Assembly (NCBI GenBank): GCA_947039455.1
Contig: CAMQZB010000002.1
Location: 97,393-161,392 of the forward strand
Source of the DNA: an uncultured Clostridia bacterium
Lineage (GTDB): Bacteria > Bacillota > Clostridia > Christensenellales > CAMQZB01
Reading direction: 5' to 3'
DNA: 64,000 nt
Shown here: piece after piece, positions 3-52,888 of the stretch
How the letters are laid out: the number at the start of each line of letters is the position of its first letter
How positions within the stretch are numbered: the first letter of the stretch is position 1
Notes under the pieces: generated by a model
What the model was told of the DNA's origin: nothing
Database searches by the model: none
Seen by the model: the letters and a program-made list of their open reading frames with translations, nothing else
Position numbers and translations under genes: made by a program

Positions 3-212
3 TTGTTGCAATACACAACACTAAATGCAGTAGCTATAAGCGAAATGATAAGAAACTGCGGCTATAAAGAACTAACCAATTATATAAATCTAGCAAAGAT
101 AAACGCTAAAGAACAAAAGGCAAACGGCGATGTGAACATATTGAAAAAAGAGCTAACAATATTAGCTAATCACATGCAAAGAATAGAAAAGGAGGGTGCA
201 AATGAGCAGTAA
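3..212 (+). CDS. Hypothetical protein, 5'-truncated by the window edge
   Basis: The open frame enters from the window start and overlaps the next gene start by 17 nt (operon-like). No recognisable motif. Confidence 0.4.
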   Translation: MLQYTTLNAVAISEMIRNCGYKELTNYINLAKINAKEQKANGDVNILKKELTILANHMQRIEKEGANEQ

Positions 213-3200
213 TGTAAAAGAGAAAATAAGAGAAATATATACAACACTTGAAGAAGTAAATCGTAATATTTCAACTGACAAGGAGCGGTTTAAAGAGTTT
301 CTAATATCATCAAGCAAAAACTACAAATGCACCTATCAACAACAATTATTGATATACAACCAGTGTCCCGAATCAACAGCCGTCCATACATTTGATGGTT
401 GGAAGAATCATTTTAAGCGTTACGTAAAAAAAGGCGCAAAAGGAATTGCCGTCCCAAACATAGAGCGAGCATACGGAAAAAACGAGTACGCCTATTTATT
501 TGATATATCCGCAACTGATCCAAGACAAAATTCAATAAACGTACCAATATGGCAAAGAGAAGACAGTGACAACACAGCAATAATCCAAACCCTTGGAAAC
601 AAATACGGAATCGATGTAGACTCAGAAGAATTCAGTGATTATACCCTTGATGAAGTAATTGAATTCGCAGTAGATATTTCTTGCCAATACAATTTTGCGG
701 ATTATATCCTAGAAAACCAACAGCAAACGGAAACGGACACAAATAACCATGCTGAAGCAACTATCTACAAAGGCGTATTAGCGACAATTTACGGAAGATT
801 GGGACTAAGCACAAACCAAATAGAGTTTGACGAATTAGAAAACTTAACTGAATCTGAATACTTCAACGTAATGGGTGCAATAAACGAAATTTCAAAAGAA
901 CTCTTACTCAATATCAGCCAAACAATCCAAACAAATCAATCAATAGCTCCGCAAACAGCGGAAGTAGAAATAACGCCAATCGAACATGATGACGAAGTGT
1001 ATTTTGAACCATTAACCAATGACAACATAAAAGCATTGAATGAGCAAATCACTTTTGAAATGCCAGTTAAAATCAAAACCGTGGAAGTGGTTGAACCTAT
1101 AAAGAAAACCGAAGTAATAAACCCAGTAATCCCACAAGTAGATTTTTACGATAAACAGCTAAAAGACGATATCGACACAAGCCAATATTTAGGACGAATT
1201 CTTGAACTAAACGGAAGAAAGTTCATAGTAGAGAAAATGGATAAAACCAATTCGTCACTTCGAGATATCACTTTCCAAGCTAACGTAGGAATACCAATCT
1301 GGAGGGGCGAACCTAGTCACTATATTGTAGATTGCATTAACGAAATTGACCGCAAAAAAAATGATAAGAAATCAAAGGGCGAGAATTTCCGTATTGAAGA
1401 TAATGCCATTGGCGTTGGAACTCCACGTGAGCGATACAAAAACAATATTGATGCAATAAAAGTATTAAAAGCATGCCAAGAAGAAAACAGCATAGCGACA
1501 AAAGTTGATCAAGAAGTATTGTCTAAATACGTTGGTTGGGGCGGATTAGCGGAAGCCTTTGACGAAACAAAATGGGGTAAAGAGTATCTTGAACTGAAAA
1601 CCTTGCTAACGGAAGACGAATACACCGCAGCAAGAGAAAGCACCTTAACCGCATTTTACACTCAACCAGTAGTAGTTAATGCAATGTATGAAGCAATCTC
1701 AAATATGGGTTTTACAAAAGGTAACATACTAGAACCGTCTTGTGGAATAGGAAATTTCATAGGACGAAAACCAACCAATCTAAATGACAGCAAAGTGTAC
1801 GGAGTGGAACTTGACAGCATTTCAGGAAGAATTTCAAAACTGTTATATCCACAAGAAAACATACAAGTCAAAGGTTTTGAACAAACGAAATTTTCAGACA
1901 ATTTCTTTGATGTAGCAATCGGAAATGTACCATTTGGAGACTTCAAAGTTCCCGATTCAAAGTATAACAAACACAACTTTCAAATTCACGATTACTTCTT
2001 TGCAAAATCACTTGATAAAGTAAGAAGTGGCGGTGTGATTGCCTTCATAACTTCACAAGGCACAATGGATAAAATGACAGCTCGTTTCAGGAAATACCTA
2101 TGCGAGAAAGCTGAATTACTTGGAGCGATAAGACTTCCTGACGATACCTTTTCAAAAAGTGCAGGAACTAAAGTAACATCAGACATTATATTTCTACAAA
2201 AAAGAGATAGACAAAACCTAGTAGAAGAAAGTTGGGTAAATACCAGTAAGTACAAAGACGAATTGCAAATGAATAACTATTTCATTGAAAACCCTGAAAT
2301 GATTTTAGGTGAAATGAAAGTAGAAAGCGGACCATTCGGACCGCAACTAAATTGTAAAGCTATAGATGGTGCAACCCTAGAAGAGCAGCTACATCAAGCA
2401 ATCAAAAACATTCATGGAAAGATTGAATTTGTTGAGCAAGAAACCGACATTGAAGATATAGACACAAGAGAAACATTGCCTGCTGACGATGCAGTAAAGA
2501 ACTTCTCATTCACAACAGTAGACGATAAAATCTTCTACAGAGAAAACAGCGTAATGGTGGAACATAAAGCACCGTTAACAACTCAAAACCGTATAAAAGG
2601 AATGATTGATCTTAGAAACATGACAAGACAATTAATCGAATACCAGTTAAATGATTATAGTGACGACCTAATCAAAGAATCTCAAAAACAGCTTGATAAA
2701 AGTTACAACACATTTACAAAAAAATACGGTTACATAAATTTAAGTGCAAATTCCAACGCGTTCAATGACGATAGCAGTTATTGTTTGTTGTGTTCACTTG
2801 AAACCCCTGATAGAGAAGAAAAAGACAAATATAATAAAGCAACTATATTCACAAAACGAACAATCAAGCCAAAAGAAGTAGTAACAAAAGTCGACACGCC
2901 AATCGAAGCATTAGTGCTGTCAGTAGCTGAAAAAACCAAAGTAGACCTAGAGTATATGTCTCAGTTAACTGATAAAACTAGCGAAGAATTAATAACCGAA
3001 CTTAGAGGCGTAATATTCAAAGAACCACGTTATGACGACAATGAAATCTATCTAACTTCAGAAGAGTATTTAAGTGGAAACGTAAGAGAAAAACTCTCAC
3101 AAGCACAGTTCTTTGCTAAAGACAATAAGCAATTTGATATCAACGTACAAGCACTAGAAAACGTAATACCAAAGGACTTAACTGCAAGTGAAATTTCAAT

Positions 3201-4578
3201 CCGCGTAGGCGCAACATGGGTTCCAGTGAAGAACTATCAAGAGTTCATGGAAGAAACATTCAAGCCAAATAGCTATGCTAAAGATGTAATAAAAGTACAG
3301 TACAGCAAAAACACATCACAATGGAATATAACTAGAAAAACAGCAGATTTAGACAACATAACAGCCACGAGCAAATACGGAACCAAGCGAAGCAACGGTT
3401 ATAAATTATTTGAAGAAAGTCTGAATTTACGTGAAGCAAGAGTGTATATGACTAAGTACGATCATGACGGCAAAGAGGTACGAGTTGTAGATAAAGAAGA
3501 AACTTCCATAGCGGTAAGCAAACAAGCATTAATTGCTGAAACTTTCAAAGATTGGGTGTGGAAAGACCCCACAAGGCGTGAACAGTTGGTTCGACTCTAC
3601 AATGATAATTACAACAACATAAGACCGCGTGAGTACCACGGTGGCGATTTAGCCTTTGTAGGTATGAACAATGAAATAACTTTAAAACCACATCAAAAAG
3701 ACGCAGTAGCTCACATTTTATATGGTGGAAATACTTTGCTAGCTCACGTTGTCGGAAGTGGTAAAACTTTCGAAATGGTTGCTGCAGCACAAGAATCAAA
3801 ACGGTTAGGATTATGCAACAAATCATTGTTTGTAGTGCCAAATCATTTGACGGAACAGTGGGCAGGTGAATACATGCAACTGTATCCATCAGCAAATATA
3901 TTAGTTGCAACAAAGAAAGATTTTGAAACAAAAAACAGAAAGAAATTCGTAAGCAGAATAGCCACAGGCGATTACGATGCAGTGATTATTGGGCATACGC
4001 AATTTGAAAAAATACCTATGTCAATCGAAAGACAAGAAATAGAATTAAATCGCCAAAAGAATGAAGTCCTAACTGGTATTGCTGAATTGAAAAGTAATAA
4101 CGGCGAAAGATTTTCAATCAAAGCAATGGAACGAACAAGAAAAGGAATTGAAGCAAAACTAAAGAAACTGAATGATGCAAGCCGAAAGGACGATGTGATT
4201 ACCTTTGAAGAATTAGGAGTAGATAGACTTTTTGTAGACGAAGCACATTACTATAAAAACTGTGCGATATTCACAAAAATGCGAAACGTTGGCGGAATAG
4301 CACAAACGGAAGCCCAAAAGTCTAGCGACCTATTTATGAAGTGTCGATACCTTGACGAAGTCACTGGAGGTCGCGGAATTATTTTCGCAACAGGAACTCC
4401 AATTTCCAACTCAATGGTAGAAATGTACACAATGCAAAGATACTTGCAATACGGAAAACTACAAGAAAAAGGATTAAACCACTTCGACAACTGGGCAAGT
4501 ACATTTGGAGAAACTCAAACCACAATAGAACTAGCGCCGGAAGGTGTAGAGTATGAAGGAGGATTGTTACTTTTATGA
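196..4578 (+). pseudogene. 5' part (codons 1-1449) of an interrupted ~2085-codon polyvalent protein: ArdC-N-like domain, N6-adenine DNA methyltransferase and SNF2/DEAD helicase N-lobe. After ...LAPEG it reads 11 foreign codons and stops at TGA.
   Basis: Motifs seen: YQQQLLIYNQ..WKNHFKRYVKKGAKGI (ArdC-N-like); EPSCGIGNF and GNVPFGD (MTase motifs I and IV); LLAHVVGSGKTF and LFVDEAHYYKN (helicase motifs I and II). The helicase C-lobe is absent here and is found at 18045-19961. Confidence 0.85.
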
Positions 4579-4778
4579 GTGATAATAACAACAATAATAA
4601 TGAAATGATAGCACAAAACGCGAGTGTGAACAAGGCAAAGACCTACAAAATAGGTAATACTTGGTATACAGTAACGGTGCATTTTAGCAAGACGAGCAAA
4701 GAGGTTTTAGAAGATAAAATCAAAAGGCTTATCAAAAATGATGATGAACTCATTGATAATGACCCTCAAAATAAATAG
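4575..4778 (+). CDS. TnpW-like small transposon protein
   Basis: The 67-aa sequence contains YTVTVHFSKTSKEVLEDKIKRLIKND, which matches the TnpW-family signature as I recall it (V.VHFS.TSKE...DKI.RLI.N). RBS AAGGAGG at 4556-4562. It lies directly upstream of the serine recombinase. Confidence 0.6.
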   Translation: MSDNNNNNNEMIAQNASVNKAKTYKIGNTWYTVTVHFSKTSKEVLEDKIKRLIKNDDELIDNDPQNK

Positions 4779-6743
<1,965 letters not shown>

Positions 6744-6753
6744 AGGAGGGAGT

Positions 6754-7434
6754 TTGGAAAACAAAGAATTTGAAATGTTTGTAATAATGCCAAAGCGTGT
6801 GCTTTATGACGAGAAAATTTCGCCGAGTGCTAAACTTCTTTATGCGGAAATTGAGTGTCTGACACACAATGTTGGATATGCGTATGCTAGTAATGATTAT
6901 TTTGCAAAGCTATTTCATTCAACGGAGCGTAGCATAATTAGATGGATAGCGGAACTGGAATCAAGAGAATACATAACTATAAAGTACAAACATGAGGTAA
7001 ATAGAAACAGTAGAAAAATATTCGCTAATATAGAGATTTCCGAAAGTGAAAATCAAAATAAAAGCGACTTTGGGGTGACAAAAATGTCACACGCGTATGA
7101 CGAAAATGTCACTCGGTCGTGTGACAAAAATGTCATACATAATAATATTAGTAATAATAATATAAATAAATATACTAAAGTAAGTAAGAAAGGAAATAAG
7201 AACGCGCGTGCGAGAGTTCTTGGGTACCAAGAAATTATGGAAGAATTTCAAGTATCTGAATTAGTGCAAACTGTTCTTTGGAGTTATATCCAATCTTGTC
7301 AGCTAAATGGATTTAAACATACTAATGAAGCATTCATGCAATTGCTTATCGATTTAGAAAATAAGTACAAATCTGATGATGATAAAATGCAAGCAATCTT
7401 AAATGCGGTTAAGTATGGTAAAAGAGTTATATAG
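6754..7434 (+). CDS. Helix-turn-helix (DnaD/replication-organiser-like) protein; start uncertain (TTG 6754 or ATG 6775)
   Basis: The segment ISPSAKLLYAEIECL...YASNDYFAKLFHSTERSIIRWIAELESREYITI resembles the winged-HTH N-terminus of DnaD-like and phage replication proteins. Confidence 0.45.
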   Translation: MENKEFEMFVIMPKRVLYDEKISPSAKLLYAEIECLTHNVGYAYASNDYFAKLFHSTERSIIRWIAELESREYITIKYKHEVNRNSRKIFANIEISESENQNKSDFGVTKMSHAYDENVTRSCDKNVIHNNISNNNINKYTKVSKKGNKNARARVLGYQEIMEEFQVSELVQTVLWSYIQSCQLNGFKHTNEAFMQLLIDLENKYKSDDDKMQAILNAVKYGKRVI

Positions 7435-7656
7435 AATAAATCACATTTCCTAATTCGGCTAAAATTAGCCTTGTAATCGAAGTGAAAGAAAATATTCATT
7501 AGATTACGAGAACAAGAAACGCCGACGAAATCGACCACGTTTTAAGGCTGATATGATATGTTTGTTTGAATTGTACAAGCTGTTACTAATAGTGATAACA
7601 AATGAAAATATAAAGCGTATTCCTTGTGTATTAAAATATCTATAATAGGAAGTTTT

Positions 7657-7713
7657 GTTACTTTTGACAAAAGTAACGCAAAAGCACTTTTGACACTTAC
7701 GTATCAAAAATGC
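7657..7713 (+). promoter_or_regulatory. Candidate oriT (RSA-like) for the MobV relaxase
   Basis: Two adjacent inverted repeats lie 50-110 bp upstream of the mob gene. One is GTTACTTTTG-A-CAAAAGTAAC (7657-7677, perfect 10-bp arms). The other is GCACTTTTGA-N10-TCAAAAATGC (7684-7713, 1 mismatch). Confidence 0.35.
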
Positions 7714-7765
7714 ACGCGCTTTGTCCTAAAGTACAAAGGGCAAAACGGACTAACGAAAAAGTGAG

Positions 7766-8959
7766 GTGATTAATATTAAAAGAACAATATCGATTATGGT
7801 GGGCAAAGGCTCACAGCAACATAATGCCAGAGCATTCAACGCCAAGAACGTTGACAGTGAAAGAACAAGCGAGAACGTTTGTTATTGCAATGAAAATTTA
7901 AAGGAAGTATATCATGAACTTTTCGAAGATGCTGTTGTTAGGTTCAATGAGAAACAAACTCGCAACGATAGGAAGATCGATAACTATTATGAAAAAATTC
8001 GAACAAGTAAACAAGAGAAACTATTTCATGAAGTAGTAGTGCAAATTGGAAACAAAGATGATATGGGTTCTAGAACATGGAACGGAAGTATAGCTGAAAT
8101 TGTCTTGAATGATTATATGAAAGAATTCGAAGAACGCAATTCGCAAATGAAAGTGTTTTCATCGCATTTGCATATGGACGAAGCTACGCCACATTTACAT
8201 ATTGATTTCGTTCCATACGTTTCAAATAGCTCAAGAGGAATGGACACGAGAGTTTCGCTAAAACAAGCTTTAGCAACTCAAGGTTTTAAAGGTGGAAGTC
8301 GAAATGAAAATGAATGGTCACAATGGGTATCTAGTGAGAAAAAACATCTTGAAAATCATATGAGGGAACATAACATTGAGTGGGAGCAAAAAGGCACTCA
8401 TGAAAAGCACTTAAATGTACTAGATTTTAAAAAACAAAAACGACTACTCGAACTTAACAGTCTTGATGAAGACATTGGCAAAAGAGTATTGGTGATTGAA
8501 GATTTAGTAGGTAAAGAAACAAGAGCAGAAAATAGAGTGAAGAATTATAAAGTAGTGGAAGAGTACATAAATAAATTACCAGACATTACAACTTCAGAAT
8601 GGCTACTGCCTGATCCTACGTTTGCAATGTCTGCAACAACTTATCATAAAAAGCATGCTAAACCACTTTTCAAAAAGTTAAAGAATTACATAGCTGATGT
8701 GATAGCAACGTTCTTAGGATTATCAAATCAATACAACAAACTTAAACGCGAAATGTATCAAGTAAATAAGTTGTTGAATCTAACGAAAAAAAAGTACAAT
8801 GAAAAAGAAGTTGAACTTAAAAAACATAAACAAAAAAGTGCGATTTACAATCGCGTAGAGAAGATATTAGGTAAAGAGAAAATACTAGACTTAATTCAAA
8901 AAGACAACTTAAAACAAACGCAACAAAAATCCAATGATAAAGGTGGCTTTTCACTATAA
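7766..8959 (+). CDS. MobV-family (Mob/Pre) relaxase; start uncertain (GTG 7766 or ATG 7796)
   Basis: HLHMDEATPHLHIDFVPY matches the H.DE..PH.H signature of Mob_Pre plasmid recombination/mobilisation enzymes. The C-terminus is coiled-coil and Lys-rich. Confidence 0.85.
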   Translation: MINIKRTISIMVGKGSQQHNARAFNAKNVDSERTSENVCYCNENLKEVYHELFEDAVVRFNEKQTRNDRKIDNYYEKIRTSKQEKLFHEVVVQIGNKDDMGSRTWNGSIAEIVLNDYMKEFEERNSQMKVFSSHLHMDEATPHLHIDFVPYVSNSSRGMDTRVSLKQALATQGFKGGSRNENEWSQWVSSEKKHLENHMREHNIEWEQKGTHEKHLNVLDFKKQKRLLELNSLDEDIGKRVLVIEDLVGKETRAENRVKNYKVVEEYINKLPDITTSEWLLPDPTFAMSATTYHKKHAKPLFKKLKNYIADVIATFLGLSNQYNKLKREMYQVNKLLNLTKKKYNEKEVELKKHKQKSAIYNRVEKILGKEKILDLIQKDNLKQTQQKSNDKGGFSL

Positions 8960-9014
8960 AAAAAGACACAAGAGCTGTTACGCTTCTTGTGCCTTTATAT
9001 TTAAAGTTGTTATG

Positions 9015-9260
9015 TTAATCAAGGTTTAAGTTGTCCGCTGAGAACTCATCACCGCTGATAAATTCGCTAGGGGATATTCTTAAACCATAGGATAATAGAA
9101 TCACGGTTTTCAAAGACATTCCTTTAGTGCGTTTTTGCATTATGCTTTTAACAGTTGAATAGGGTAATCCGCTTAATTCGGCTAACTTGTATTGCGTTAA
9201 ATTTTGCTTTCCCATGTATTCAGATAATTTTTCTCTAACTAAGTCATTAATAGTTTTCAT
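9015..9260 (-). CDS. XRE-family helix-turn-helix regulator
   Basis: 81 aa with LTQYKLAELSGLPYSTVKSIMQ, a typical Cro/CI HTH. Divergent from the 9346-9374 promoter. Confidence 0.8.
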   Translation of the reverse strand: MKTINDLVREKLSEYMGKQNLTQYKLAELSGLPYSTVKSIMQKRTKGMSLKTVILLSYGLRISPSEFISGDEFSADNLNLD

Positions 9261-9345
9261 TTGCGTTCCTCCAAGTAGGACTATATGTAATCTTAGTTTA
9301 TCCCAAAACTAAATAAAATATAGGACTATTAATTATCCTATTTAC

Positions 9346-9374
9346 TTGACCGCTATATGAAATTACTATATAAT
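9346..9374 (+). promoter_or_regulatory. Sigma-70-type promoter TTGACC-17 nt-TATAAT, with an ATAGGA-N10-TCCTAT inverted repeat just upstream (9320-9341)
   Basis: Hexamers and spacer read directly from the sequence. It lies in the divergent XRE / DUF1273 intergenic region. Confidence 0.5.
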
Positions 9375-9441
9375 TAGGATTAGGTGTAGTCTTAAAAGGA
9401 TTGTATTATTATACTACAACTTGAATTTTGGAGGAAGAAGA

Positions 9442-9960
9442 ATGTTTGATAAACAAGTAGAGAGTGTAAGCACTATAGGCGAAACGTGTTGTTTTACTGG
9501 TAATAGACCGCAAAAACTTGCATGGGGATACGATGAAAGCGATGTAAGGTGTGTGGAACTAAAGTTAAGAATAACCGCTGAGATTGAAAAAGCAATTGAT
9601 AAAGGGTATAACCACTTTATCTCTGGAATGGCACAAGGCTTCGATACCTACTGTGCCGAAATCGTTTTAGAGTTAATGAAAACTAACAAGAATATAACGC
9701 TAGAAGTAGCAATACCATGCGAAGGGCAATCTTCTAAATGGTACGAAGAAGATAAGGCGCGTTATTTTTTAATTATATCAAAAGCCACAAAAGAAACAAT
9801 GGTAACTAACCAATATACTAAATACAGCATGCAACTACGCAACAAATACATGGTTGCCAATTCGTCACTAGTAATAGCCTACAACACCTCCCCAATTGGT
9901 GGTACAGCATCCACAATAACCTACGCCCAAAAATTAAATAGAATTGTAGTGGTGTTGTGA
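9442..9960 (+). CDS. DUF1273 / SLOG-family (YoqJ-like) protein
   Basis: CCFTGNRPQKL...ISGMAQGFDTYCAEIVLEL matches the DUF1273 pattern as I recall it. RBS GGAGGAAG sits before the ATG at 9442. Confidence 0.55.
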   Translation: MFDKQVESVSTIGETCCFTGNRPQKLAWGYDESDVRCVELKLRITAEIEKAIDKGYNHFISGMAQGFDTYCAEIVLELMKTNKNITLEVAIPCEGQSSKWYEEDKARYFLIISKATKETMVTNQYTKYSMQLRNKYMVANSSLVIAYNTSPIGGTASTITYAQKLNRIVVVL

Positions 9961-10110
9961 TTAAATAAACTAAGACTTTATATTTCTACCGTAATATAAT
10001 AAAGGTACAAGAATTAAAAAATTCTTGCACCTTTCGTTCTACGAACGTTAGTTATAATATAATTTGCACTTGTATCGAAAACAAAATTGTGATATAATAA
10101 GTGCAAGAAT

Positions 10111-10229
10111 AAAAAAAAACTTTGCATTGCAAAGTTAAATTTTTCACCACACTGGTGAACCGACAAGTCGGCGATTTGAATGAATTCTTATTTGAACTCG
10201 TTGTGTAATCCTAAATGGTAGTCTAGGAC
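10111..10229 (-). ncRNA. tracrRNA: tracrRNA (~120 nt; 5' end estimated from the promoter)
   Basis: The minus strand reads GACTACCATTTAGGATTACACAAC, a perfect 24-nt complement of repeat positions 9-32. This is followed by GAGTTCAAATAAG (bulge plus lower stem, as in SpCas9 tracrRNA). Then come hairpins GCCGA-CTTG-TCGGT and CACCA-GTG-TGGTG, and the terminator ACTTTGC-AAT-GCAAAGT followed by T9. Confidence 0.85.
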
Positions 10230-10235
10230 ACAACT

Positions 10236-10264
10236 ATTATAACACACTTTTATTAAGGAGTCAA
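10236..10264 (-). promoter_or_regulatory. tracrRNA promoter TTGACT-17 nt-TATAAT (minus strand)
   Basis: -35 box at 10264-10259 and -10 box at 10241-10236. The -35 box overlaps the cas9 RBS (AAGGAG, 10255-10260). Confidence 0.6.
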
Positions 10265-10270
10265 TAGAAA

Positions 10271-13200
10271 ATGGATAAAATATTTTTTGGTTTAGATATT
10301 GGAACTGCGTCTGTAGGATTTGCAGTAACGGATGAAAACTATAAATTAAAGAAGTTAAAAGGCAAAGATGCGTGGGGCGTAAGATTGTTTGACCCAGCAA
10401 ATACCGCAGTTGAGCGAAGAGTGTTTAGAACTACAAGACGTCGTAGTATGCGAAGAAAGAATCGAATTGCATTATTGCAAGAAATATTTGCGGAAGAAAT
10501 TTCAAAAGTGGATCAAGGATTTTTCCAACGCATGAATGATAGTTTTTACGTTCAAAATGATAAGGCAGTAAATCAACCGTATTCACTTTTTTCGGGCAAA
10601 GAGTTTAATGATAAACACTATAATAGGCAATTCCCGACAATATATCATCTTCGAAAAGCATTGATTGAACAAGGTTCTTCAGATGCTCGTTTATTGTATC
10701 TTGCAATACATCATATAATTAAATACAGAGGTCATTTTTTATTTGAAGGACAAGACTTTTCAAGTGCACTTAAGATTGATTCTCTAATATTAGGATTAAA
10801 CGAAGAATTACAATTCTTTGAATTAAGCGGATTTGGCATGTCTGAATTGGATTCGTTGTCAAATATTGTTTTAGATAGTAAACTAAAATTAACAGCAAAA
10901 AAGAAACAGTTTGAGAAAATTCTTAATCCAACAACAAAGCAAGAAATTGAAATGATTTCGGTAATGGTTGGTGGAAGTTCTACATTAAATAAGATATTTG
11001 CTACGCAAGATTTTTCCGAGAGCGAAGTGAAGTCTATTAAATTTAGCGACAATGGTTTTGAAGACAATACTATGCCAAAACTTACGACGATTTTGGACGA
11101 ACAACACTTGGCAGTAATTGAAAAGCTAAAGGCAATTTATGATTGGACAGTACTATTTTCAATATTGCAAGGAAATCAATACATTTCGATTTCAATGTGT
11201 GGAAGATATGAAAAGCATAAAAAAGACTTAGCTATATTAAAGAAGTTTGTTAAAGAAAATTGCAAATCAAAATATGGAGAAATTTTTAGAAAAGATAAGT
11301 TATATTCTGCATATGTCGCTAGTGTAAAGGTAGGCTGTGAGAAAGTATCAATTAAAAAAATATCAGTAAAAGAAGATTTTTATAAAGAATTAAAAAAAGT
11401 ACTTGCTCAAGAGTCTGGAAGTATAATTGATAAAACAACTTATGAATACATATTGTCCGAAATGGAAAACGGAACTTTTTTACCTAAACAAGTAGTGAAA
11501 GATAACAGCGTAATTCCATATCAAGTGAATAAAATGGAACTTGATCAAATACTTGAAAATGCAAGCAAACATCTTGCTTTTTTAAATGAAAAGCATGATG
11601 GTATAACAGTTAAAGAAAAAATATCACTACTCTTGACATTTAAGATTCCATACTATGTTGGACCGCTTAATAATCACCACAAAGAAAAATTTGCGTGGGT
11701 GGAAAGGCTTAGCACAGGAAGAGTAACGCCATGGAATTTTGATGATAAAATCGATAAAGATAAGAGTGCTGAAAAATTCATAACTAGAATGACGAATAAG
11801 TGTAGCTATTTAATTGGTGAAGATGTACTTCCTAAAACTTCGATAATATATCAAAAATTTACGGTATTGAATGAAATTAATAATATTAAAATTAATGGTG
11901 AGGCTATTACTGTTGAATTAAAGCAAGATATATTTAATGAGTTGTATTTGCTAAATAAGAAAGTGACTGTTAAAAAAGTCAAATTATTTTTAATAGAAAA
12001 AGGGTTGTTTAATAAAAATGATAAAATTGAAATAACTGGTGTGGATGTTGAGGGAGAACTTAAGTCATCAATGAGTTCATATGTAACATTTACAGATATA
12101 TTCAAAGAATTAACTACTGAAAATATAATAATCGCAGAAAACATAATTAAATGGAGTACATTGTTTGAAGATAAGAAAGTGCTTAAAAGACGAATTCAAT
12201 TAGAGTATGGCGATATATTAAAGTCAGAAACGTTAAATAAAGTAGTAGGAATGAATTTTAAAGGTTGGGGTAGATTATCTGATAAATTGCTAAACGATGT
12301 TATGAATATTAATAAAGAAACAGGTGAAGTGTATTCATTAATTGAAAACATGTGGTCTAGTAACGATAACCTTATGGAATTGTTATCAAACCATTATAGC
12401 TACAGTGATGAAATCATGAAAATTAATTCTGATAAAATGAACGATTCCCAAAAAGTGAGTTATAAAGATATAGAAATTCTACCATGCTCACCATCGGTAA
12501 AAAGACAAATATGGCAATCATTTGAAGTAGTAAATGAGCTTGTAAAAGTAGCAAAAAAACAACCTGATAAAATCTTCATTGAAATGGCTAGAGGTGGTGG
12601 CGAGAAAAACAAGCGTACACTCTCAAGGAAAAAAAACCTAATTGAATTATACAGCAACATAAAAGAGGAAAGTGCTAGTTGGATTAAAGAGCTAGAGAGC
12701 TTAGACGATCAAAGATTGCAAAGCGATAAACTGTATTTGTACTATACTCAAATGGGAAAATGTATGTATTCAAATGAAAAAATAGATTTAGGCGATTTGT
12801 TAACGAACAATATGGCATATGACATTGACCATATCTATCCACAGAGTAAAATTAAAGACGATAGTTTGGATAATAGAGTATTAGTAAAGAAAGTTTTGAA
12901 CGGTGAAAAACTGAATGTTTATCCAATTTCATTTGCATGGCAACAAAAATGCAAAGGATTGTGGAATGCACTACTAAAGTATGCATTAATTAGCAAGAAA
13001 AAATATGAACGACTAGTTAGAACAACTGAATTTAGTGCTGATGAATTGGCTGACTTTATTGATAGACAGCTTGTTGAAACGCGCCAAACAACAAAATATG
13101 TTGCAAGCATACTAAAAACTATTATGCCAAAAACAGAGATTGTATATGTTAAAGCAGGTAATGTATCGAACTTTAGACATGATATGAATTTGTTGAAAGT

Positions 13201-14305
13201 AAGAGATATTAACGATTTACACCATGCGAACGATGCTTATTTAAATATAGTAGTTGGTAATGTTTATAATACTAAATTCGGTGCTAATGCTCGTATATTC
13301 ATGAAAAACAAACCAGAAGCATATAACATGCGAAGAATGTTTGATTATGATGTTAAGAGAGGTGAATACTATGCTTGGAAGCAACTAGGCGAAGATAAAA
13401 CTATTAATAAAGTGGTGCAAACGCTTACTAAGAATTCTCCCCTTGTTAGCAGATATACATATGAAGGTAAAGGTGGATTTTTCGACCAAAACATTGTAAA
13501 GAAGAAAGCAGGACTATTCCCAATTAAAGCAAGCGACGAAAGATTGCTAAAAACTGAAATTTATGGTGGATATAATAAGTTAGCTACAGGTTATTTCATT
13601 ATTATTGAGCATACAAAAAAATCAAAAACAATTCGCACTATTGAGAAAGTGCCTGTATTATATATAAATAAACTTGGTAACGATACTAATGCTCTAGAAA
13701 AATATTGTGAAAGTATTGGATATGAAAAGCCGAGGATTATTTGCAAAAAAATCAAAATCAAAACATTGTTTAAGATTAATGGAGTTAAATTAAGAATAGC
13801 AAATACAACTGGAACGCAAATAGGATTCCATTTAGCTGAAGAAGCTTATTGGAGTGACAAACAATCACTATATATAAAAAAATTAATTAGGGTAGCTGAA
13901 AAAATTTCTGAGAAGAAAATCAAGAAAGAAAATTATCAAATTACAAAATATGATAGTATTACTGTTCATGAAAATTTAAATACATTTGAAAATTTAATTT
14001 ATAAATTACAAAATAAGCCTTATAAAGAAACAACAATTTTTCAAAGTGTAGCATTAAAATTGCAAAATAAAAAAGAATTTTTCAGTGATATAGTTATAAA
14101 TCAACAAGTGGTAGTCCTATTAGAAATATTAAAACTATTTAAGAACGACGCAACAAAATCTGATTTATCATTGCTTCAAGAAGGCAGTGCAGTTGGTACA
14201 ATAGTATTAACTCAAAATTTGAATCCAAAAGATACAATCAAAATAATTTCACAATCTCCAACTGGATTATACGAAAAAGAGATTGACGTTTGGTCAATAA
14301 AATGA
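10271..14305 (+). CDS. cas9: Cas9, type II-A, 1344 aa
   Basis: RuvC-I FGLDIGTASVGFAV; arginine-rich bridge helix RRRSMRRKNRI; HNH YDIDHIYPQS..DDSLDNRVLV; RuvC-III HHANDAYLNIVVG. Followed by cas1, cas2 and csn2. Confidence 0.97.
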   Translation: MDKIFFGLDIGTASVGFAVTDENYKLKKLKGKDAWGVRLFDPANTAVERRVFRTTRRRSMRRKNRIALLQEIFAEEISKVDQGFFQRMNDSFYVQNDKAVNQPYSLFSGKEFNDKHYNRQFPTIYHLRKALIEQGSSDARLLYLAIHHIIKYRGHFLFEGQDFSSALKIDSLILGLNEELQFFELSGFGMSELDSLSNIVLDSKLKLTAKKKQFEKILNPTTKQEIEMISVMVGGSSTLNKIFATQDFSESEVKSIKFSDNGFEDNTMPKLTTILDEQHLAVIEKLKAIYDWTVLFSILQGNQYISISMCGRYEKHKKDLAILKKFVKENCKSKYGEIFRKDKLYSAYVASVKVGCEKVSIKKISVKEDFYKELKKVLAQESGSIIDKTTYEYILSEMENGTFLPKQVVKDNSVIPYQVNKMELDQILENASKHLAFLNEKHDGITVKEKISLLLTFKIPYYVGPLNNHHKEKFAWVERLSTGRVTPWNFDDKIDKDKSAEKFITRMTNKCSYLIGEDVLPKTSIIYQKFTVLNEINNIKINGEAITVELKQDIFNELYLLNKKVTVKKVKLFLIEKGLFNKNDKIEITGVDVEGELKSSMSSYVTFTDIFKELTTENIIIAENIIKWSTLFEDKKVLKRRIQLEYGDILKSETLNKVVGMNFKGWGRLSDKLLNDVMNINKETGEVYSLIENMWSSNDNLMELLSNHYSYSDEIMKINSDKMNDSQKVSYKDIEILPCSPSVKRQIWQSFEVVNELVKVAKKQPDKIFIEMARGGGEKNKRTLSRKKNLIELYSNIKEESASWIKELESLDDQRLQSDKLYLYYTQMGKCMYSNEKIDLGDLLTNNMAYDIDHIYPQSKIKDDSLDNRVLVKKVLNGEKLNVYPISFAWQQKCKGLWNALLKYALISKKKYERLVRTTEFSADELADFIDRQLVETRQTTKYVASILKTIMPKTEIVYVKAGNVSNFRHDMNLLKVRDINDLHHANDAYLNIVVGNVYNTKFGANARIFMKNKPEAYNMRRMFDYDVKRGEYYAWKQLGEDKTINKVVQTLTKNSPLVSRYTYEGKGGFFDQNIVKKKAGLFPIKASDERLLKTEIYGGYNKLATGYFIIIEHTKKSKTIRTIEKVPVLYINKLGNDTNALEKYCESIGYEKPRIICKKIKIKTLFKINGVKLRIANTTGTQIGFHLAEEAYWSDKQSLYIKKLIRVAEKISEKKIKKENYQITKYDSITVHENLNTFENLIYKLQNKPYKETTIFQSVALKLQNKKEFFSDIVINQQVVVLLEILKLFKNDATKSDLSLLQEGSAVGTIVLTQNLNPKDTIKIISQSPTGLYEKEIDVWSIK

Positions 14306-15171
14306 GCTTTAGAACTATAGTTATCTCATCTCGTGCAAAATTAGAAACAAGAATGAATTACTTAATAGTGCGTGGTGAAAATGATAGCAAAATTCATTTA
14401 AGCGAAATAAATACAATTATAGTCGACTCCACAGCAGTAGCAATAACGGCAGGACTGTTGTGTGAGTTGTCTAATCGTAAAATAAAGCTAATTTTCTGTG
14501 ATGAAAAACATAATCCACATTGTGAAATGGTGCCATATTATGGATCCCATGATACAAGTGAAAAAATCAAAAATCAAACCAACTGGAGCTTAATGGTAAA
14601 GTCGCTTGTATGGACAAATGTAATACGATTGAAGATAAAAAAGCAATCTGAACATTTGCGTAGTTTAGGTTTAGTTGAACATGAGACCTTGGAAAAATAC
14701 CAAAACGAAATTGTGTTAAATGATTTAACAAATAGAGAAGGGCATTCTGCTAAACTATATTTTATAAGTATATTTGGAAAAGATTTTACGAGATCGAACT
14801 CGTCTTCAATTAATATGATGCTTAATTATGGTTATGCTATAATACTGTCGGCGTTTAATAGAGAAATAGTTTCTAGCGGCTATATAACGCAAATAGGATT
14901 AAAACATTGCAATGAATACAATCATTTCAATTTAGCAAGTGATTTAATGGAACCCTTTAGAATAGTTATAGATCGAGCTGTTGTTGACATGATTGATGAA
15001 CCTTTTGAAAAAGAACAGCGGAATAAATTAGTTGACCAATTAAATAAAGAAGTTATCATTTTCGGAAAGAAACAATTTCTTTCTAACGCAATAAAAATAT
15101 ACTGTAAAAGCGTATTCAATGCATTAAATGAAGAAAATGAGTTGCTAATAAAAGAATATTATGAGTTATAG
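14302..15171 (+). CDS. cas1: Cas1
   Basis: ATGA overlap with the cas9 stop. Its size and position between cas9 and cas2 are typical of type II. The track ORF starts 12 nt earlier. Confidence 0.93.
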   Translation: MSFRTIVISSRAKLETRMNYLIVRGENDSKIHLSEINTIIVDSTAVAITAGLLCELSNRKIKLIFCDEKHNPHCEMVPYYGSHDTSEKIKNQTNWSLMVKSLVWTNVIRLKIKKQSEHLRSLGLVEHETLEKYQNEIVLNDLTNREGHSAKLYFISIFGKDFTRSNSSSINMMLNYGYAIILSAFNREIVSSGYITQIGLKHCNEYNHFNLASDLMEPFRIVIDRAVVDMIDEPFEKEQRNKLVDQLNKEVIIFGKKQFLSNAIKIYCKSVFNALNEENELLIKEYYEL

Positions 15172-15481
15172 ATTTATGAGAGTTTTAGTTTTTTATGATA
15201 TGCCTAATCAAACAGATTTAGAAAAGAGAGAATATCGCTACTTTAGAACATATCTAATAAAAAGTGGCTTTATAATGTTGCAAGAATCTGTCTATGGCAA
15301 ATTGGCTTTGAATGGAAGTGTAGTTGAGTCAATTAGACTTAATTTAAGAAAAAATAAACCCAAATGCGGATTAGTGCAAATTTTGGCACTAACTGAAAAA
15401 CAGTTTTCAGATATGGAATTTCTTGTTGGATCGAGTACAAACGATGTACTTGATACTATTGATAGGTTGGTTGTGCTATGA
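15161..15481 (+). CDS. cas2: Cas2
   Basis: 106 aa with N-terminal MRVLVFYDMP, a Cas2-like beta strand. Overlaps cas1 and csn2. Confidence 0.9.
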   Translation: MSYRFMRVLVFYDMPNQTDLEKREYRYFRTYLIKSGFIMLQESVYGKLALNGSVVESIRLNLRKNKPKCGLVQILALTEKQFSDMEFLVGSSTNDVLDTIDRLVVL

Positions 15482-16152
15482 CTATAAACTTACCAAGTCT
15501 TGAAGAATGTATTTATGTGTACGAAAATAAAACAACAGTATTAGTGGTTGAAGATCCCCAAAGTTATTATAAGGTAATTAACGAATGGAAAGACAACATA
15601 GAAGGATTAGACGATTCAATTGCGGTCTTTGAAAATCACAAAGAAATGGTGGTGAAGAAACAAGTAGAATTATTGACTGATTTATTTAATTTTACAATAA
15701 ATAATAGGAAAAACATCACGATGCTACATAGCAAAATTAAACAAATTGCTTATAGAGAGGATTTTTATTTAAAATCTCAATCACTATTATCGGTGCAACA
15801 AAAATATCTAACTGATATTATATTTGAATTACAAAGTGATGTGAAGTTTGATGAAGAAATTGATATTAGCGGAATTTTCAAAGTTTTTGATGTAAAATAT
15901 GAAGAGAAAAGTAATTCTTTGTTGGAAAAGCTAGTGAATTATATCAAAGTAATTTCGGAATTCTCGTCAATTAAGTTATTGGTAACTGTAAATTTAAAAG
16001 CAGTGTTGTCCGAATTAGAAGTGCGACAATTGTATAAAGAAGCAAATTATATGAAAATGAATCTATTGCTAATTGAAAATAACTATCAACAGAATTTAGA
16101 TGGTGAAAACGTCTATATACTTGACAAAGATAGGTGTTTAGTGTATAAATAG
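15478..16152 (+). CDS. csn2: Csn2 (type II-A signature adaptation protein)
   Basis: 224-aa ORF overlapping the cas2 stop, located immediately before the CRISPR leader. Confidence 0.85.
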   Translation: MTINLPSLEECIYVYENKTTVLVVEDPQSYYKVINEWKDNIEGLDDSIAVFENHKEMVVKKQVELLTDLFNFTINNRKNITMLHSKIKQIAYREDFYLKSQSLLSVQQKYLTDIIFELQSDVKFDEEIDISGIFKVFDVKYEEKSNSLLEKLVNYIKVISEFSSIKLLVTVNLKAVLSELEVRQLYKEANYMKMNLLLIENNYQQNLDGENVYILDKDRCLVYK

Positions 16153-16220
16153 AGTAGGATTGTATTATATATTGTTTAGGATTAATGCGTATGTTGTGCG
16201 TAAAGACTCTCAAATGTGAG
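16153..16220 (+). promoter_or_regulatory. CRISPR leader
   Basis: 68-bp AT-rich segment between csn2 and the first repeat. It ends ...CAAATGTGAG, similar to the ATTTGAG-type leader-anchoring end of other II-A arrays. Confidence 0.6.
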
Positions 16221-17906
16221 GTTTGAGAGTTGTGTAATCCTAAATGGTAGTCAAACAAATATGAGAGTACGCAACGTAATGTGCTAGTTTGAGAGTTGTG
16301 TAATCCTAAATGGTAGTCAAACGACTGAATCAGATATAACCCATACATGGGGGTTTGAGAGTTGTGTAATCCTAAATGGTAGTCAAACGATTGAACTAGC
16401 ATACAAGCAAACGGAGCCGTTTGAGAGTTGTGTAATCCTAAATGGTAGTCAAACCATACTCAATGTTTGAGTATTGGCAATCATGTTTGAGAGTTGTGTA
16501 ATCCTAAATGGTAGTCAAACCCAAATAAAAAATACAGCAATTGAAATTACGTTTGAGAGTTGTGTAATCCTAAATGGTAGTCAAACTTAAATTTTCAACA
16601 TTTAGCGTGTATCTATGTTTGAGAGTTGTGTAATCCTAAATGGTAGTCAAACTAAAATATAGCGTGTTATTGTGTTAGTACTGTTTGAGAGTTGTGTAAT
16701 CCTAAATGGTAGTCAAACAGCGAATCCAGCCATGTATGAAAATAGGCCGTTTGAGAGTTGTGTAATCCTAAATGGTAGTCAAACTGGTGTAAATTTCTTG
16801 AAAGTAAAGGCTATGTTTGAGAGTTGTGTAATCCTAAATGGTAGTCAAACTTTAGGATACAAAACAAGCCGACCACCTTTGTTTGAGAGTTGTGTAATCC
16901 TAAATGGTAGTCAAACCAACAACACTAATTTTATCACCCTTGTCAAGTTTGAGAGTTGTGTAATCCTAAATGGTAGTCAAACTAAATCACTTCCAAGGTC
17001 GAGAAACTTATTGTTTGAGAGTTGTGTAATCCTAAATGGTAGTCAAACGGTGATTATAGTATTCTCGTAAAGTTCTATGTTTGAGAGTTGTGTAATCCTA
17101 AATGGTAGTCAAACTTTAGTAGATTGCTCGTAATGCTCACAGTGGTTTGAGAGTTGTGTAATCCTAAATGGTAGTCAAACAGTTCAACTCTTTCAAATGG
17201 TATGCACTTAGTTTGAGAGTTGTGTAATCCTAAATGGTAGTCAAACGAAACCACTACCTACCGCACTGTTATAATTGTTTGAGAGTTGTGTAATCCTAAA
17301 TGATAGTCAAACAAGAAGAAGAAGACACAGCATACGGAAAGGGTTTGAGAGTTGTGTAATCCTAAATGGTAGTCAAACTCTATAATATATATCAACGGAA
17401 GGAAAGCAGTTTGAGAGTTGTGTAATCCTAAATGGTAGTCAAACCATTGCACTTGCTGTTTCATCTATGCTATGTTTGAGAGTTGTGTAATCCTAAATGG
17501 TAGTCAAACTGTAATGTTCTTTTGCAAGCCATCGCCAATGTTTGAGAGTTGTGTAATCCTAAATGGTAGTCAAACTTGCTTTCGGCACTACCTTGCTCAT
17601 GCATAAGTTTGAGAGTTGTGTAATCCTAAATGGTAGTCAAACTTGTAAGAAGTTTAAGAACTATATTTTATTGTTTGAGAGTTGTGTAATCCTAAATGGT
17701 AGTCAAACTCAAACATTGACAATACACTGAACACGTGAGTTTGAGAGTTGTGTAATCCTAAATGGTAGTCAAACGCCCTCCGTTAGTGTGCTATATAATA
17801 CATAGTTTGAGAGTTGTGTAATCCTAAATGGTAGTCAAACATACCAATAGTGCAGAACTGCAGAACCTACATTTGAGAGTTGTGTAATCCTAAATGGTAG
17901 TTTAGT
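16221..17906 (+). CRISPR. CRISPR array: 26 repeats of 36 bp (GTTTGAGAGTTGTGTAATCCTAAATGGTAGTCAAAC) and 25 spacers
   Basis: 66-bp periodicity checked at several points. Spacers are 30 nt, except spacer 19 (29 nt) and spacer 21 (31 nt). Repeat 17 has G->A at 17303. The terminal repeat (17871-17906) is degenerate (ATTTGAG...GTAGTTTAGT). Confidence 0.98.
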
Positions 17907-17963
17907 TATTGCAAAAATTTAATTTTATAGTTTAAAACATTTATAGTTAAATGTACTAAACGA

Positions 17964-17999
17964 AACACCTATTGATTTTTTATCGATAGGTGTTTTTTC
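17964..17999 (+). terminator. Rho-independent terminator downstream of the array
   Basis: AACACCTATTGAT-TTTTT-ATCGATAGGTGTT followed by TTTTT. Confidence 0.6.
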
Positions 18000-18044
18000 A
18001 TGCCCAAAATCAGAAAACATCACAAGTATCCTTGACAAACAGTT

Positions 18045-19961
18045 CCTGAAGGCACATCCTATCGCAGCAAAACCCGCTTCAATAAATTCTATAATTTACC
18101 TGAATTAATGAGCATATTTAAAGAGGTTGCGGACATCAAAACAGCGGACATGTTAGACTTGCCAGTGCCAAAAGCTAACTTTCATACCATTGCTGTAAAA
18201 CCTACTGAAGTACAACGAGAGTTCGTTATGAACTGTGCGGATAGAGCTGAAGCGGTGAGAGATAGGTCAGTAGATAGCACCGTTGACAACATGTTGAAAA
18301 TTACAAACGATGGACGGAAAATCGCATTAGACCCAAGATTAATAAATCCACTTCTTGAAGATGAAAAAGTAACGAAAGTTAATGCTTGTGTCAATAATGT
18401 ATTCAACATTTGGAAAGATGGAACTACTCCAGAAAATAATGAAGATCCAACCAATCAAACCCAATTAGTATTTTGCGATATGTCAACACCAAAAACTGAT
18501 GGCACGTTCAATGTCTATGATGATATTAGAGAAAAATTAGTTAAAAAAGGTATGCAAAAAGAGCAAATAGCTTTCATTCACGAAGCTAAAACCGATATTC
18601 AAAAAGACAAACTATTTGCAAAAATGAAACGTGGCGAAATTCGAGTATTACTTGGTTCAACGCAAAAAATGGGTGCAGGAACTAATGTTCAAGAGCGATT
18701 AAAAGCAATTCACCACCTAGACTGTCCATGGAGACCAAGTGATTTAGAGCAGCGGAATGGACGAGTAATAAGACAAGGCAATTTGAATAAAGAAGTTGAT
18801 GTATATAACTATGTAACCAGTGAAACATTTGATGCGTATTTATATCAACTAGTAGAAAATAAGCAAAAATTCATATCTCAAATCATGTCAAGCAAAGCGA
18901 TAGTGAGAAGTGCGGAAGATATAGACGAGACAGCGTTATCATATGCTGAAATCAAAATGTTGGCAACAGGAAATCCCTACATAAAAGAAAAAATGGATCT
19001 AGATATTCAAGTTGCAAGATTGAAATTACTAAAGAGCAATTACCAAAACGAGATTTATCAACTACAAGATTTTATCTATAAAGATTACCCAACTCAATTA
19101 GCTGATGTGTTATCCAAAATAGACACAACTGAAAAAGATGTAGCAATTCAAATGACACACCCAGAGAAAATAAGTGACAAGAATTTCACTAATATGAATG
19201 TAATGGGTAAAGTGCATTACGACAAAGAAATGGCAGGTCGAGCCTTGCTTGAGAGTATGAAAGGCGTTGGGATTGATGAAAAAGAAGTAGGTGAGTATCG
19301 TGGGTTTAAGCTAATAGCGAATTACTCAATTTTCGAAAGCAAAACGAAACTAACAATCAAAAACAACGGACGGCGTACTATCGATATGGGCATTGACGTG
19401 TTCGGTAATATCCAAAGAATTGATAATGCAATTAATAACATTCCACTAAGATTAAATACATATAAAGAAGTCCTTACAGAGCTTGAAAACCAACTAGAGG
19501 TAGCAAAAGTAGAAGTTGAAAAAACATTCGATAAAGATGATGAATTAAATACAAAACTAGCAAGATTGAAAGAGCTTGACTCTCTATTAAATTTAGATAA
19601 AAGCACAGCGAAACAAGAAACTGAAGATCAACAAAACGCAAATGAAAGCAACGGAATAATCGAAACAACGCTATTTAGTTCGCATTGTGTATTTGACAAC
19701 GAAGCGCGAAACGCTAAGCTAATGCAAATGCCAAGTGATAGTGAATATGGCGACTATTGTTATTATCTTGAAAATTCTCTGATAGTAAGTGAAATTGATG
19801 GAGAAATCAATATAAAAGCAGATATAAGTAGTTCGATAAAGATATTCAACGATAAAACAGTTAAGAATATATCAATAATTGATTTTGTAAGACAGCAAGA
19901 AAATCGAATAAACCAAAGTGCGGAAAAAATCCGTAGTAATGAATTAGAAATAGCAATTTAA
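18045..19961 (+). pseudogene. 3' part of the interrupted polyvalent protein (helicase C-lobe and C-terminal tail)
   Basis: The frame reads PEGTSYRSKTRFNKFYNLPELMSIFKEVADIK..., then VFCDMSTPK, LLGSTQKMGAGTNVQ and HLDCPWRPSDLEQRNGRVIRQGN (helicase motifs IV-VI). It is in frame with 196-4544 once 4545-18052 is removed. Confidence 0.85.
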
Positions 19962-38075: not shown

Positions 38076-38249
38076 TTTTTTCCTCCTAAATATTTCTCCA
38101 TGAGTATACATGCAATTTCGATAATTGTCAAGTTGAGGTGACTGTAATAAATTAATTAAATATAATTAGTTATGTTTAAACTTTTAAACCATCAAAATTA
38201 AATAAAAGTATATAAACAATTTGCTGAAATTGCAAACATAACAAGAATA

Positions 38250-48562: not shown

Positions 48563-48563
48563 G

Positions 48564-51464: not shown

Positions 51465-51480
51465 AAATGGAGGATAAATC

Positions 51481-52248: not shown

Positions 52249-52427
52249 ATTTGTTGTATCATAACTACTGAATTATTAACCTAATATTCTTCCAAATCGA
52301 CCATTACATTAAACCGCACGTGATATATTGAAGAAATGTTAGCTATTTTTACTTACAACTATTATATAGCTTGACAAATAATATAATCTGTTGTAGTATA
52401 TTACATATAAGTTAGGAGGATATAATT

Positions 52428-52880
52428 GTGAAATATAAAACAGATCGAGTAAGAAGTAAAATATTGTATTGCATATACAAATTGTTCAATGATATGAATG
52501 TAACAAATAACAGGTCTACAAATACTAATTTTGAAGGCGAACAAGCGTCGTATATTTGGGGAAATGGCTTTAATATGATGCAAAAGGAATTGGCTAACTC
52601 ATATAATCAAAAATATTATACTGGAAATAGTTTTTCTGAAGTAACTGATGTTGCTGAAAAGTATTTATCATTATTATCATTGGAAGATGAAGAGATTTTG
52701 CGTTTATCATACGGCATAGATGATGGTAAAATACTAACAAGAACAGAGTTGTCATTGTATTCCGGATTAACTCTAGCAATTTATGAAAAAAAATTAAAAT
52801 CTGCAATGAAGAATTTTTCTTTTTTTGCTAGAGACATTACACAAGAGGAAAAAAAACTATTAGAATTATTAACAGACTAA
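52428..52880 (+). CDS. Small protein with a sigma-70 region-4-like HTH
   Basis: GTG start after AGGAGGA. EDEEILRLSYGIDDGKILTRTELSLYSGLTLAIYEKKLKSAMKNF. Confidence 0.35.
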   Translation: MKYKTDRVRSKILYCIYKLFNDMNVTNNRSTNTNFEGEQASYIWGNGFNMMQKELANSYNQKYYTGNSFSEVTDVAEKYLSLLSLEDEEILRLSYGIDDGKILTRTELSLYSGLTLAIYEKKLKSAMKNFSFFARDITQEEKKLLELLTD

Positions 52881-52888
52881 TTAATATT

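Follow-up and report, generated by a model that had tools for sequence, protein, structure and literature searches.

In a 64,000-nt stretch of DNA from an uncultured Clostridia bacterium (contig CAMQZB010000002.1 of assembly GCA_947039455.1, positions 97,393 to 161,392; hereafter the window), a gene encoding an SNF2 helicase and N6-adenine methylase is split by 13,508 bp of inserted sequence. The insert, measured between two GA dinucleotides (4540/4542 to 18047/18049), carries the genes for TnpW, a DUF4368 large serine recombinase, and a MobV-type relaxase, together with a complete type II-A CRISPR-Cas9 locus. It is very probably a Tn4451-like or "IME_SNF2" integrative and mobilizable element (IME) nested in the helicase-methylase gene of a Firmicute conjugative element, and excision at GA would restore that gene. 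Support for this reading comes from the anatomy of the insert, the exact restoration of the open reading frame (ORF), the recurrence of the identical site in independent relatives, and a symmetry centre at GA.

The interrupted helicase-methylase gene

The pentanucleotide GAAGG occurs at 4540-4544 and again at 18048-18052, in equal codon phase (GAA GGN in the frame of the flanking ORFs). The left junction, CTAGCGCCGGAAGG followed by TGTAGAG, occupies 4531-4551, and the right junction, ACAGTTCCTGAAGG followed by CACATCC, carries the second GAAGG. An original prediction, made from the letters and their ORFs, had given both strings and both GAAGG copies, and all are present in the sequence; only the start of the 21-nt right-hand string, at 18039 and not 18041, was misplaced by a trivial slip. 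The same prediction had named GAAGG as the sole sequence common to the junctions. It is indeed shared at both ends, but the arms to its left also agree at 7 of 14 positions (judged by eye), which fits related half-sites of attB and attP, the attachment (att) sites of host and circular element.

When 196-4544 and 18053-19961 are joined, the resulting 6258 nt form the single ORF of 2085 codons plus stop that had been predicted, with no internal stop, and the joint reads ...TIELAPEGTSYRSKTRFNKFYNLPELMS... The codon count presumes the GTG at 196; the gene call of the source scaffold uses ATG 202, which gives 2083 codons. In the inserted state, again as had been read before, the truncated 5' ORF continues past the junction for 11 codons (GVEYEGGLLLL) until TGA 4576-4578, a stop that shares bases with the tnpW ATG at 4575 (ATGA). 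At the start of the 3' fragment, a stop codon precedes the GAA by 5 codons. By Pfam, the 5' fragment carries an Eco57I-type methylase domain and the SNF2/ResIII N-lobe (SNF2 N-lobe at residues 1161 to 1355), and the 3' fragment carries Helicase_C. The insertion therefore parts the two RecA-like lobes, which agrees with the separation of helicase motifs described earlier.

We searched for homologues with a 700-aa query centred on the joint, which returned thousands of matches, and used the best 120 listed. These are intact proteins of about 71% identity, nearly all spanning the whole query. With the central 120 aa as the BLASTP query, all 120 listed homologues align gap-free over 119 residues across PEG-T(S/G)YR, without an extra or missing residue, and PEGT(G/S)YR is kept in a multiple alignment of intact homologues. 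This was the check that the original prediction had proposed, and it turned out in its favor. The homology of the 5' fragment also ends where expected: beyond the E codon, nothing in the intact homologues corresponds to the tail VEYEGGLLLL, and they have TGYRAKTRF there instead. Judged from these alignments, the agreement of the joint with intact homologues is far beyond chance.

Relatives at the same codon

Few members of the recombinase lineage have been sampled. A search of 5.8 billion protein clusters gave no close relative; the best match is 64% identical and comes from the same metagenome (L083), and others are 58% identical (L084-86, from Paenibacillus macerans and two metagenomic or sequencing-run contigs) and 57% identical (L087-89). 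We fetched the contexts of the three closest recombinase relatives on longer contigs. In L083, L084-86, and L087-89, the genes for TnpW and the recombinase directly follow an SNF2-methylase gene whose homology ends with ...LAPE, and where the contigs are long enough, a Helicase_C fragment resumes from GTGYR several kilobases downstream. The cargo varies among these relatives, with ParB and a chemoreceptor in L084 and ParB and a GerA-type spore germination operon in L087.

All left junctions of the relatives read CCG GAA GGT(G/A)TA..., and the right junctions read TCCTTGACAAAC(A/T)G..CC(T/G) GA(A/G) GG. The att site pattern has GA as its core, CCTTGACAAAC-N-G-NN-CCN-GA as the conserved motif of its right end, and AGGT(G/A)TA at its left end. 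By scanning JGI metagenome contigs with the right-end motif, we recovered 16 loci. In 6 of the 16, GA(A/G)GG is followed by an in-frame EG(T/G)GYRARTRF..NLPELM supported by tblastn, and in a seventh by translation only; the element sequence upstream is different in each of these helicase-positive loci. In L093, L094, L096, L098, L100/L101, L103, L104, and L106, the motif is followed by non-helicase sequence, and no TnpW, recombinase, or helicase match was found. These loci may represent further target sites, joints, or matches by chance. At the target codons, a natural unoccupied homologue (L002) reads CCG GAG GGG. About ten independent elements of the lineage sit at the identical SNF2 codon. 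From these recurrent junctions and the unoccupied L002 site, we take the lineage to be strictly site-specific for a single SNF2 codon (LAPE-G) across Clostridia and Paenibacillus. Large serine recombinases that are this selective, and whose attP and attB are known, have practical interest as tools for integration.

Several observations on these loci stand apart. L083 (scaffold_1455, 8300-10501) is a related IME that occupies this codon in another SNF2 gene (65% identical); the first ~30 nt of its left end are nearly identical to those of the window element (AGGTGTAGATTATGAAGGAGGGTTGTTACTT), and the contig stops before any cargo. The chemoreceptor of L084 is a methyl-accepting chemotaxis protein (14894-16222), and the operon of L087 (14439-18174) encodes GerA, GerAC, and a spore permease. 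In L100/L101, the right-end motif precedes an RBS (ribosome-binding site)-like GGAGGGAGG and an ATG. In Sporofaciens musculi (L003, NZ_WUQX01000001, 5780-7430), a frameshifted DUF4368-type recombinase gene abuts an SNF2 C-fragment that begins with ELAPEGTGYR. The break is ~12 bp upstream of the window site, apparently at the GA of the preceding GAA codon, and a different IME lineage seems to use this neighboring site in the same motif. In L095, L099, and L105 (JGI), the helicase C-fragment aligns over ~235 to 263 aa and is then followed by another recombinase gene (preceded by tnpW in L095), which points to a second hot spot for IMEs farther into this SNF2 gene. A C-terminal DUF7662 domain (recombinase residues 563 to 633) is common to the SNF2-targeting relatives and is lacking in distant, shorter DUF4368 recombinases; this extension may contribute to site specificity.

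Position of the crossover

A single insertion leaves five shared bases, and with the window alone any dinucleotide of GAAGG could be the crossover. The third base differs between attL (GAA) and attR (GAG) of L087, so that neither AA nor AG can be the overlap. The base before GA differs between the window junctions (G versus T), which excludes anything further left, so that GA and the GG at +3 remain. We reconstructed attP for three elements and, with arms of 24 nt, scored the dyad symmetry about each of 17 candidate centres. At GA the scores were 13, 14, and 14 of 24, against 8, 6, and 6 at GG (+3), and offsets other than GA ranged from 3 to 10, with a background of about 6. In addition, an A follows GA in all seven attL copies (from four lineages), while attR copies and empty sites have either A or G there, as would a wobble position of the host gene. 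Such a pattern is to be expected only if the base in attL comes from the element, which puts the crossover to its left. GA is also the target core documented for Tn4451 and TndX (PMC5704250, Table 1; PMC4430133).

By the comparison of relatives and the attP symmetry, we place the crossover at GA, the position originally favored because it is the core used by TnpX-type recombinases. The assignment to the TnpX type is good at the family level, with TnpW (PF14202) encoded ahead of a recombinase that has Resolvase, Recombinase, Zn-ribbon, and DUF4368 domains.

Predicted excision and circular form

In the mechanism that we propose, the recombinase of the element would have integrated a circular form by recombination between attP and attB, making a staggered cut of 2 bp at the central GA. 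The same enzyme would recombine attL with attR to yield a 13.5-kb circle and the resealed host gene ...CTAGCGCCG-GA-AGGCACATCC..., one intact ORF. The circle joint is predicted to read ...TTGACAAACAGTTCCTGAAGGTGTAGAGTATG..., attP ...ATCCTTGACAAACAGTTCCTGAAGGTGTAGAGTATGAAGGAGG..., and attB ...ATAGAACTAGCGCCGGAAGGCACATCCTATCGC... Ser17, in LYCRLSRDD, is the predicted nucleophile; Pfam places PF00239 at residues 11 to 156 of the recombinase, along with PF07508, PF13408, and PF14287 (E = 7e-24), and NCBIfam gives weak similarity to XisF and CcrB. The MobV-type relaxase would let the circle use the mating pore of the host integrative and conjugative element (ICE) or of another one; alternatively, the element could ride passively within the ICE.

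The circle may also carry its own promoter. We applied the same promoter-scan criteria to four site configurations. A sigma-70-like site spanning the crossover (TTGACA, 17 nt, TAGAGT; 10/12 matches) was present only in the reconstructed attP of the window, and at the integrated right end the scan found no such promoter site. The -35 hexamer is invariant in every recovered right end. In the circle, the right-end TTGACA and the left-end TAGAGT would come to lie 17 nt apart, ahead of the RBS GAAGGAGG and the tnpW ATG, and we infer a joint-specific promoter for tnpW and the recombinase gene. Lyras and Rood reportedly named a circular-form promoter for tnpX in the title of a paper in 2000; the joint promoter proposed here would mirror that circular-form tnpX promoter of Tn4451/Tn4453.

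Alternative readings

Several points weigh against a mobile element that excises at GA. Neither an excised circle nor an allele of this particular ICE with the site empty was found, and the 4 contigs that have the exact recombinase share one context. Among the matches listed, no intact homologue is more than 72% identical. No oriT was identified in the element. The attB site itself has little dyad symmetry, and the GG at +3 is ruled out by symmetry and by the conserved A of attL alone, which is not direct evidence. In the Paenibacillus-type relatives, the -10 hexamer at the joint is weak (TAAGCT, 3/6) and fails the scan criteria.

The element could be an immobile fossil that was integrated once by serine recombination and no longer excises. 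The SNF2 gene would then be permanently split, and its methylase-bearing 5' fragment may still work alone. Such a fossil would be in keeping with the integrated state being the only one seen on the 4 contigs and with the many decayed IME_SNF2 relatives and truncated SNF2 genes reported in Streptococcus suis, and no recombination directionality factor (RDF) or excision signal was identified. However, all ORFs of the element are full-length, the recombinase keeps every domain and the Ser17 motif, and the lineage-conserved end motifs and the attP symmetry are kept at both ends. Neither helicase fragment has internal stops, and the 25-spacer array with its identical repeats suggests recent activity. 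We consider a fossil unlikely.

A crossover at another dinucleotide of GAAGG, most plausibly the GG at 4543-4544 and 18051-18052, would restore the same ORF. All four dinucleotides are formally possible in the window, and GG is shared in L087 as well, but the L087 mismatch, the low symmetry at +3, the invariant A of the attL copies, and the documented GA core of TnpX and TndX make this highly improbable. A naturally two-part helicase gene with an unrelated gene island in between and a coincidental GAAGG, for which the sole point is that no empty allele of this exact gene was seen, is effectively refuted by the collinearity of all 120 listed homologues as single proteins across the joint and by element ends shared with other elements at the same codon, the intervening DNA also encoding its own recombinase and relaxase.

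The CRISPR-Cas9 cargo

The divergent Cas9 cargo is the unusual part of the nested IME; the junction phenomenon is ordinary for such elements. The type II-A set is complete, with cas9, cas1, cas2, csn2, a trans-activating CRISPR RNA (tracrRNA) gene with its anti-repeat, and an array of 36-nt repeats, and the system is apparently intact as judged from its sequence. The nearest Cas9 relative among 5.8 billion clustered proteins is 47% identical. Its locus (L090) has no TnpX-like element, and the cas locus is therefore not co-inherited with the element backbone.

Searches with the whole array gave no meaningful protospacer match in cultured phages (megablast and blastn) or plasmids (megablast), and three leader-proximal spacers had no match in IMG/VR. 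All spacers compared with the window and all fetched loci gave chance matches only, without self-targeting. An Rfam scan of 4000-18500 returned nothing above noise; the tracrRNA, which matched no Rfam family, was found through its anti-repeat. The strong hairpin behind the array was missed by a simple terminator scan, and its strength was revealed by folding. The gene for a YpsA/SLOG protein lies between the mobilization module and the tracrRNA/cas9 region.

Within the literature searched, a survey of 400 S. suis genomes found a complete CRISPR-Cas system on an IME in none, and reviews of CRISPR on mobile elements are silent on type II systems carried by serine-recombinase IMEs; given the limited range of that literature, such silence is no proof of novelty. 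We tentatively suggest that the window element may be the first to be described in which a small serine-recombinase IME, homing to one SNF2 codon of conjugative elements, has a complete, adaptation-competent type II-A CRISPR-Cas9 system as its cargo. It would be a mobile immunity cassette combined with a switch of the ICE helicase-methylase. If so, Cas9 immunity could be passed among Firmicutes that carry ICEs, perhaps to the benefit of the ICE or the IME when facing phages or rival mobile elements, and insertion and excision would switch the ICE helicase-methylase off and on. A 13.5-kb mobilizable element can carry a whole Cas9 system with tracrRNA, adaptation genes, and a 25-spacer array, and this bears on the horizontal spread of type II-A systems and on the traffic of defense genes through ICE/IME consortia.

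The host conjugative element and other features

The window belongs to a 186-kb ENA metagenome scaffold. Upstream of the insert are genes for ParA, a MobL relaxase, and a VirD4/TraG coupling protein; downstream are genes for a VirB4-like ATPase, a primase-like protein, and a type I restriction-modification (R-M) system. The insert has a relaxase and an integrase but no VirB4 or type IV secretion system (T4SS) gene among its Pfam matches. Lacking a T4SS and flanked by conjugation genes, it is therefore read as an IME nested in an ICE or a conjugative plasmid. Its GC content is slightly lower than that of its surroundings (29 to 35% versus ~36%) and gives no help in placing the boundaries.

The host element also has a defense island (window 44406-55050), in which the type I R-M genes (two hsdM, hsdS, and hsdR) are followed by genes for an SRA-domain protein and a 666-aa HNH protein. 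The host element further encodes a lipoprotein (37155-38111, minus strand) in which three Ltp repeats were recognized (PF07553, E = 2e-75), a family familiar from phage superinfection exclusion. The features of the insert and the interrupted gene are listed in Table 1.

Table 1. Features of the nested element and of the interrupted gene, in window positions
Feature	Position	Strand	Basis
5' fragment, SNF2 helicase/N6-adenine methylase gene of the host conjugative element, DEAH	196-4541	+	ORF list; PF07669, PF00176, PF04851; homologues 71% identical
Alternative start of the 5' helicase fragment	ATG 202	+	Gene call of the source scaffold
attL crossover dinucleotide GA (proposed), within GAAGG 4540-4544	4540-4541	+	Junction comparison, symmetry
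Element-encoded read-through tail of the truncated helicase ORF (VEYEGGLLLL and TGA)	4545-4578	+	No homologue similarity past PEG
TAGAGT, -10 half of the putative joint promoter; then RBS GAAGGAGG at 4556-4563	4547-4552	+	10/12 match in attP only
tnpW, 67 aa	4575-4778	+	PF14202, E = 3e-13
Large serine recombinase, 640 aa; Resolvase, Recombinase, Zn-ribbon, DUF4368, DUF7662	4821-6743	+	Pfam
HTH_36 protein, possibly replisome-organizer-like or regulatory	6754-7434	+	PF13730
Mob_Pre/MobV-type relaxase	7766-8959	+	PF01076, E = 4e-15; NF041497 weak, under its cutoff
XRE-type HTH regulator	9015-9260	-	PF13443
YpsA/SLOG (DprA-like) protein	9421-9960	+	PF06908
tracrRNA; anti-repeat 10192-10227; TTGACT/TATAAT promoter ~10262-10234; three hairpins, T-run	10112-10227	-	Read from sequence
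cas9, 1344 aa	10271-14305	+	Pfam Cas9_REC, PI, HNH, RuvC, BH; TIGR01865, 907 bits
cas1 (14290-15171), cas2 (15161-15481), csn2 (15478-16152)	14290-16152	+	PF01867, PF09827, PF09711; TIGR01866
CRISPR array: 26 repeats of 36 nt, 25 spacers of 29-31 nt, degenerate terminal repeat	16221-17906	+	
Strong hairpin into T-run, likely array terminator	17962-17996	+	Folding -18.9 kcal/mol, z = -8.2
TTGACA, -35 half of the putative joint promoter, within right-end motif CCTTGACAAAC conserved in all relatives	18032-18037	+	
attR crossover dinucleotide GA (proposed), within GAAGG 18048-18052	18048-18049	+	Junction comparison, symmetry
3' fragment of the SNF2 helicase gene, Helicase_C lobe, 636 codons	18051-19961	+	Pfam

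Comparison with known systems

The element shares with Tn4451/Tn4453 a DUF4368 large serine recombinase, TnpW, and a Mob/Pre-type relaxase, as well as a 2-bp GA crossover, precise excision to a circle (predicted here), and a promoter across the circular joint (putative here). The circular order is also the same, with tnpW directly upstream of the recombinase gene. However, the att site here lies upstream of tnpW and not between tnpW and tnpX, so that both genes are at the left end. The classical Tn4451 order, in which tnpX and tnpW occupy opposite ends, occurs in L003-L009 and L107; the relatives in reference genomes, of which 80 loci were retrieved, all have at most 50% recombinase identity, and their ends are too divergent to align. 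In contrast to Tn4451/Tn4453, no Pfam match to TnpV or TnpY was found in the element, and the cargo is CRISPR-Cas9 in place of catP. The serine integrase of Tn4451 recombines 2-bp identical sequences and needs no RDF. Tn4451 targets "numerous sites (GA)" (PMC5704250), whereas the lineage described here appears specific for one SNF2 codon. The recombinase is ~37 to 47% identical to annotated relatives, with 37% to annotated TndX and 43% to that of a Tn4451-like element on an IncC plasmid. Because tnpW and the recombinase gene are adjacent at one end, no TnpV was found, the lineage appears site-specific, and these identities are 37 to 43%, we file the element outside strict Tn4451 membership.

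Streptococci commonly harbor serine-recombinase IMEs with MobV relaxases whose specific target is snf2 (the COG4646 methylase-helicase gene) of Tn5252- and Tn1549-family ICEs, and the authors of those studies proposed that excision restores snf2 when conjugation is induced. Like IME_SNF2, including the "tet(O) fragment" of ICESp2905 and the S. suis IMEs, the window element has a serine recombinase and a MobV (PF01076) relaxase and disrupts an ICE-borne methylase-helicase gene at an internal site. It differs in its host, an uncultured low-GC Firmicute and not a Streptococcus, and in its cargo, which is CRISPR-Cas where the streptococcal elements have the antibiotic resistance genes tet(O) and erm(B). 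Tn6104 and Tn6105 in Tn6103, a CTn5-like ICE of C. difficile R20291, are likewise TnpX-related mobilizable transposons nested in a conserved ICE gene. Tn6104 has a 2-bp flanking repeat, and its excision with regeneration of the target was shown experimentally. Its target, however, is traG (VirD4) according to an IME review (PMC5704250), not snf2, and its cargo is different.

The reconstitution of an interrupted ORF by serine-recombinase excision, as predicted here, is also known from skin/SpoIVCA, fdxN/XisF, and "active lysogeny" prophages, but those are chromosomal developmental switches, whereas here a transferable element sits inside another transferable element. The element thus files under the IME_SNF2/Tn4451-like kind, and serine-recombinase IMEs in ICE snf2 genes have already been described. 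Its junction is a textbook-style case of nested mobile elements, to which it adds a cleanly defined att site.

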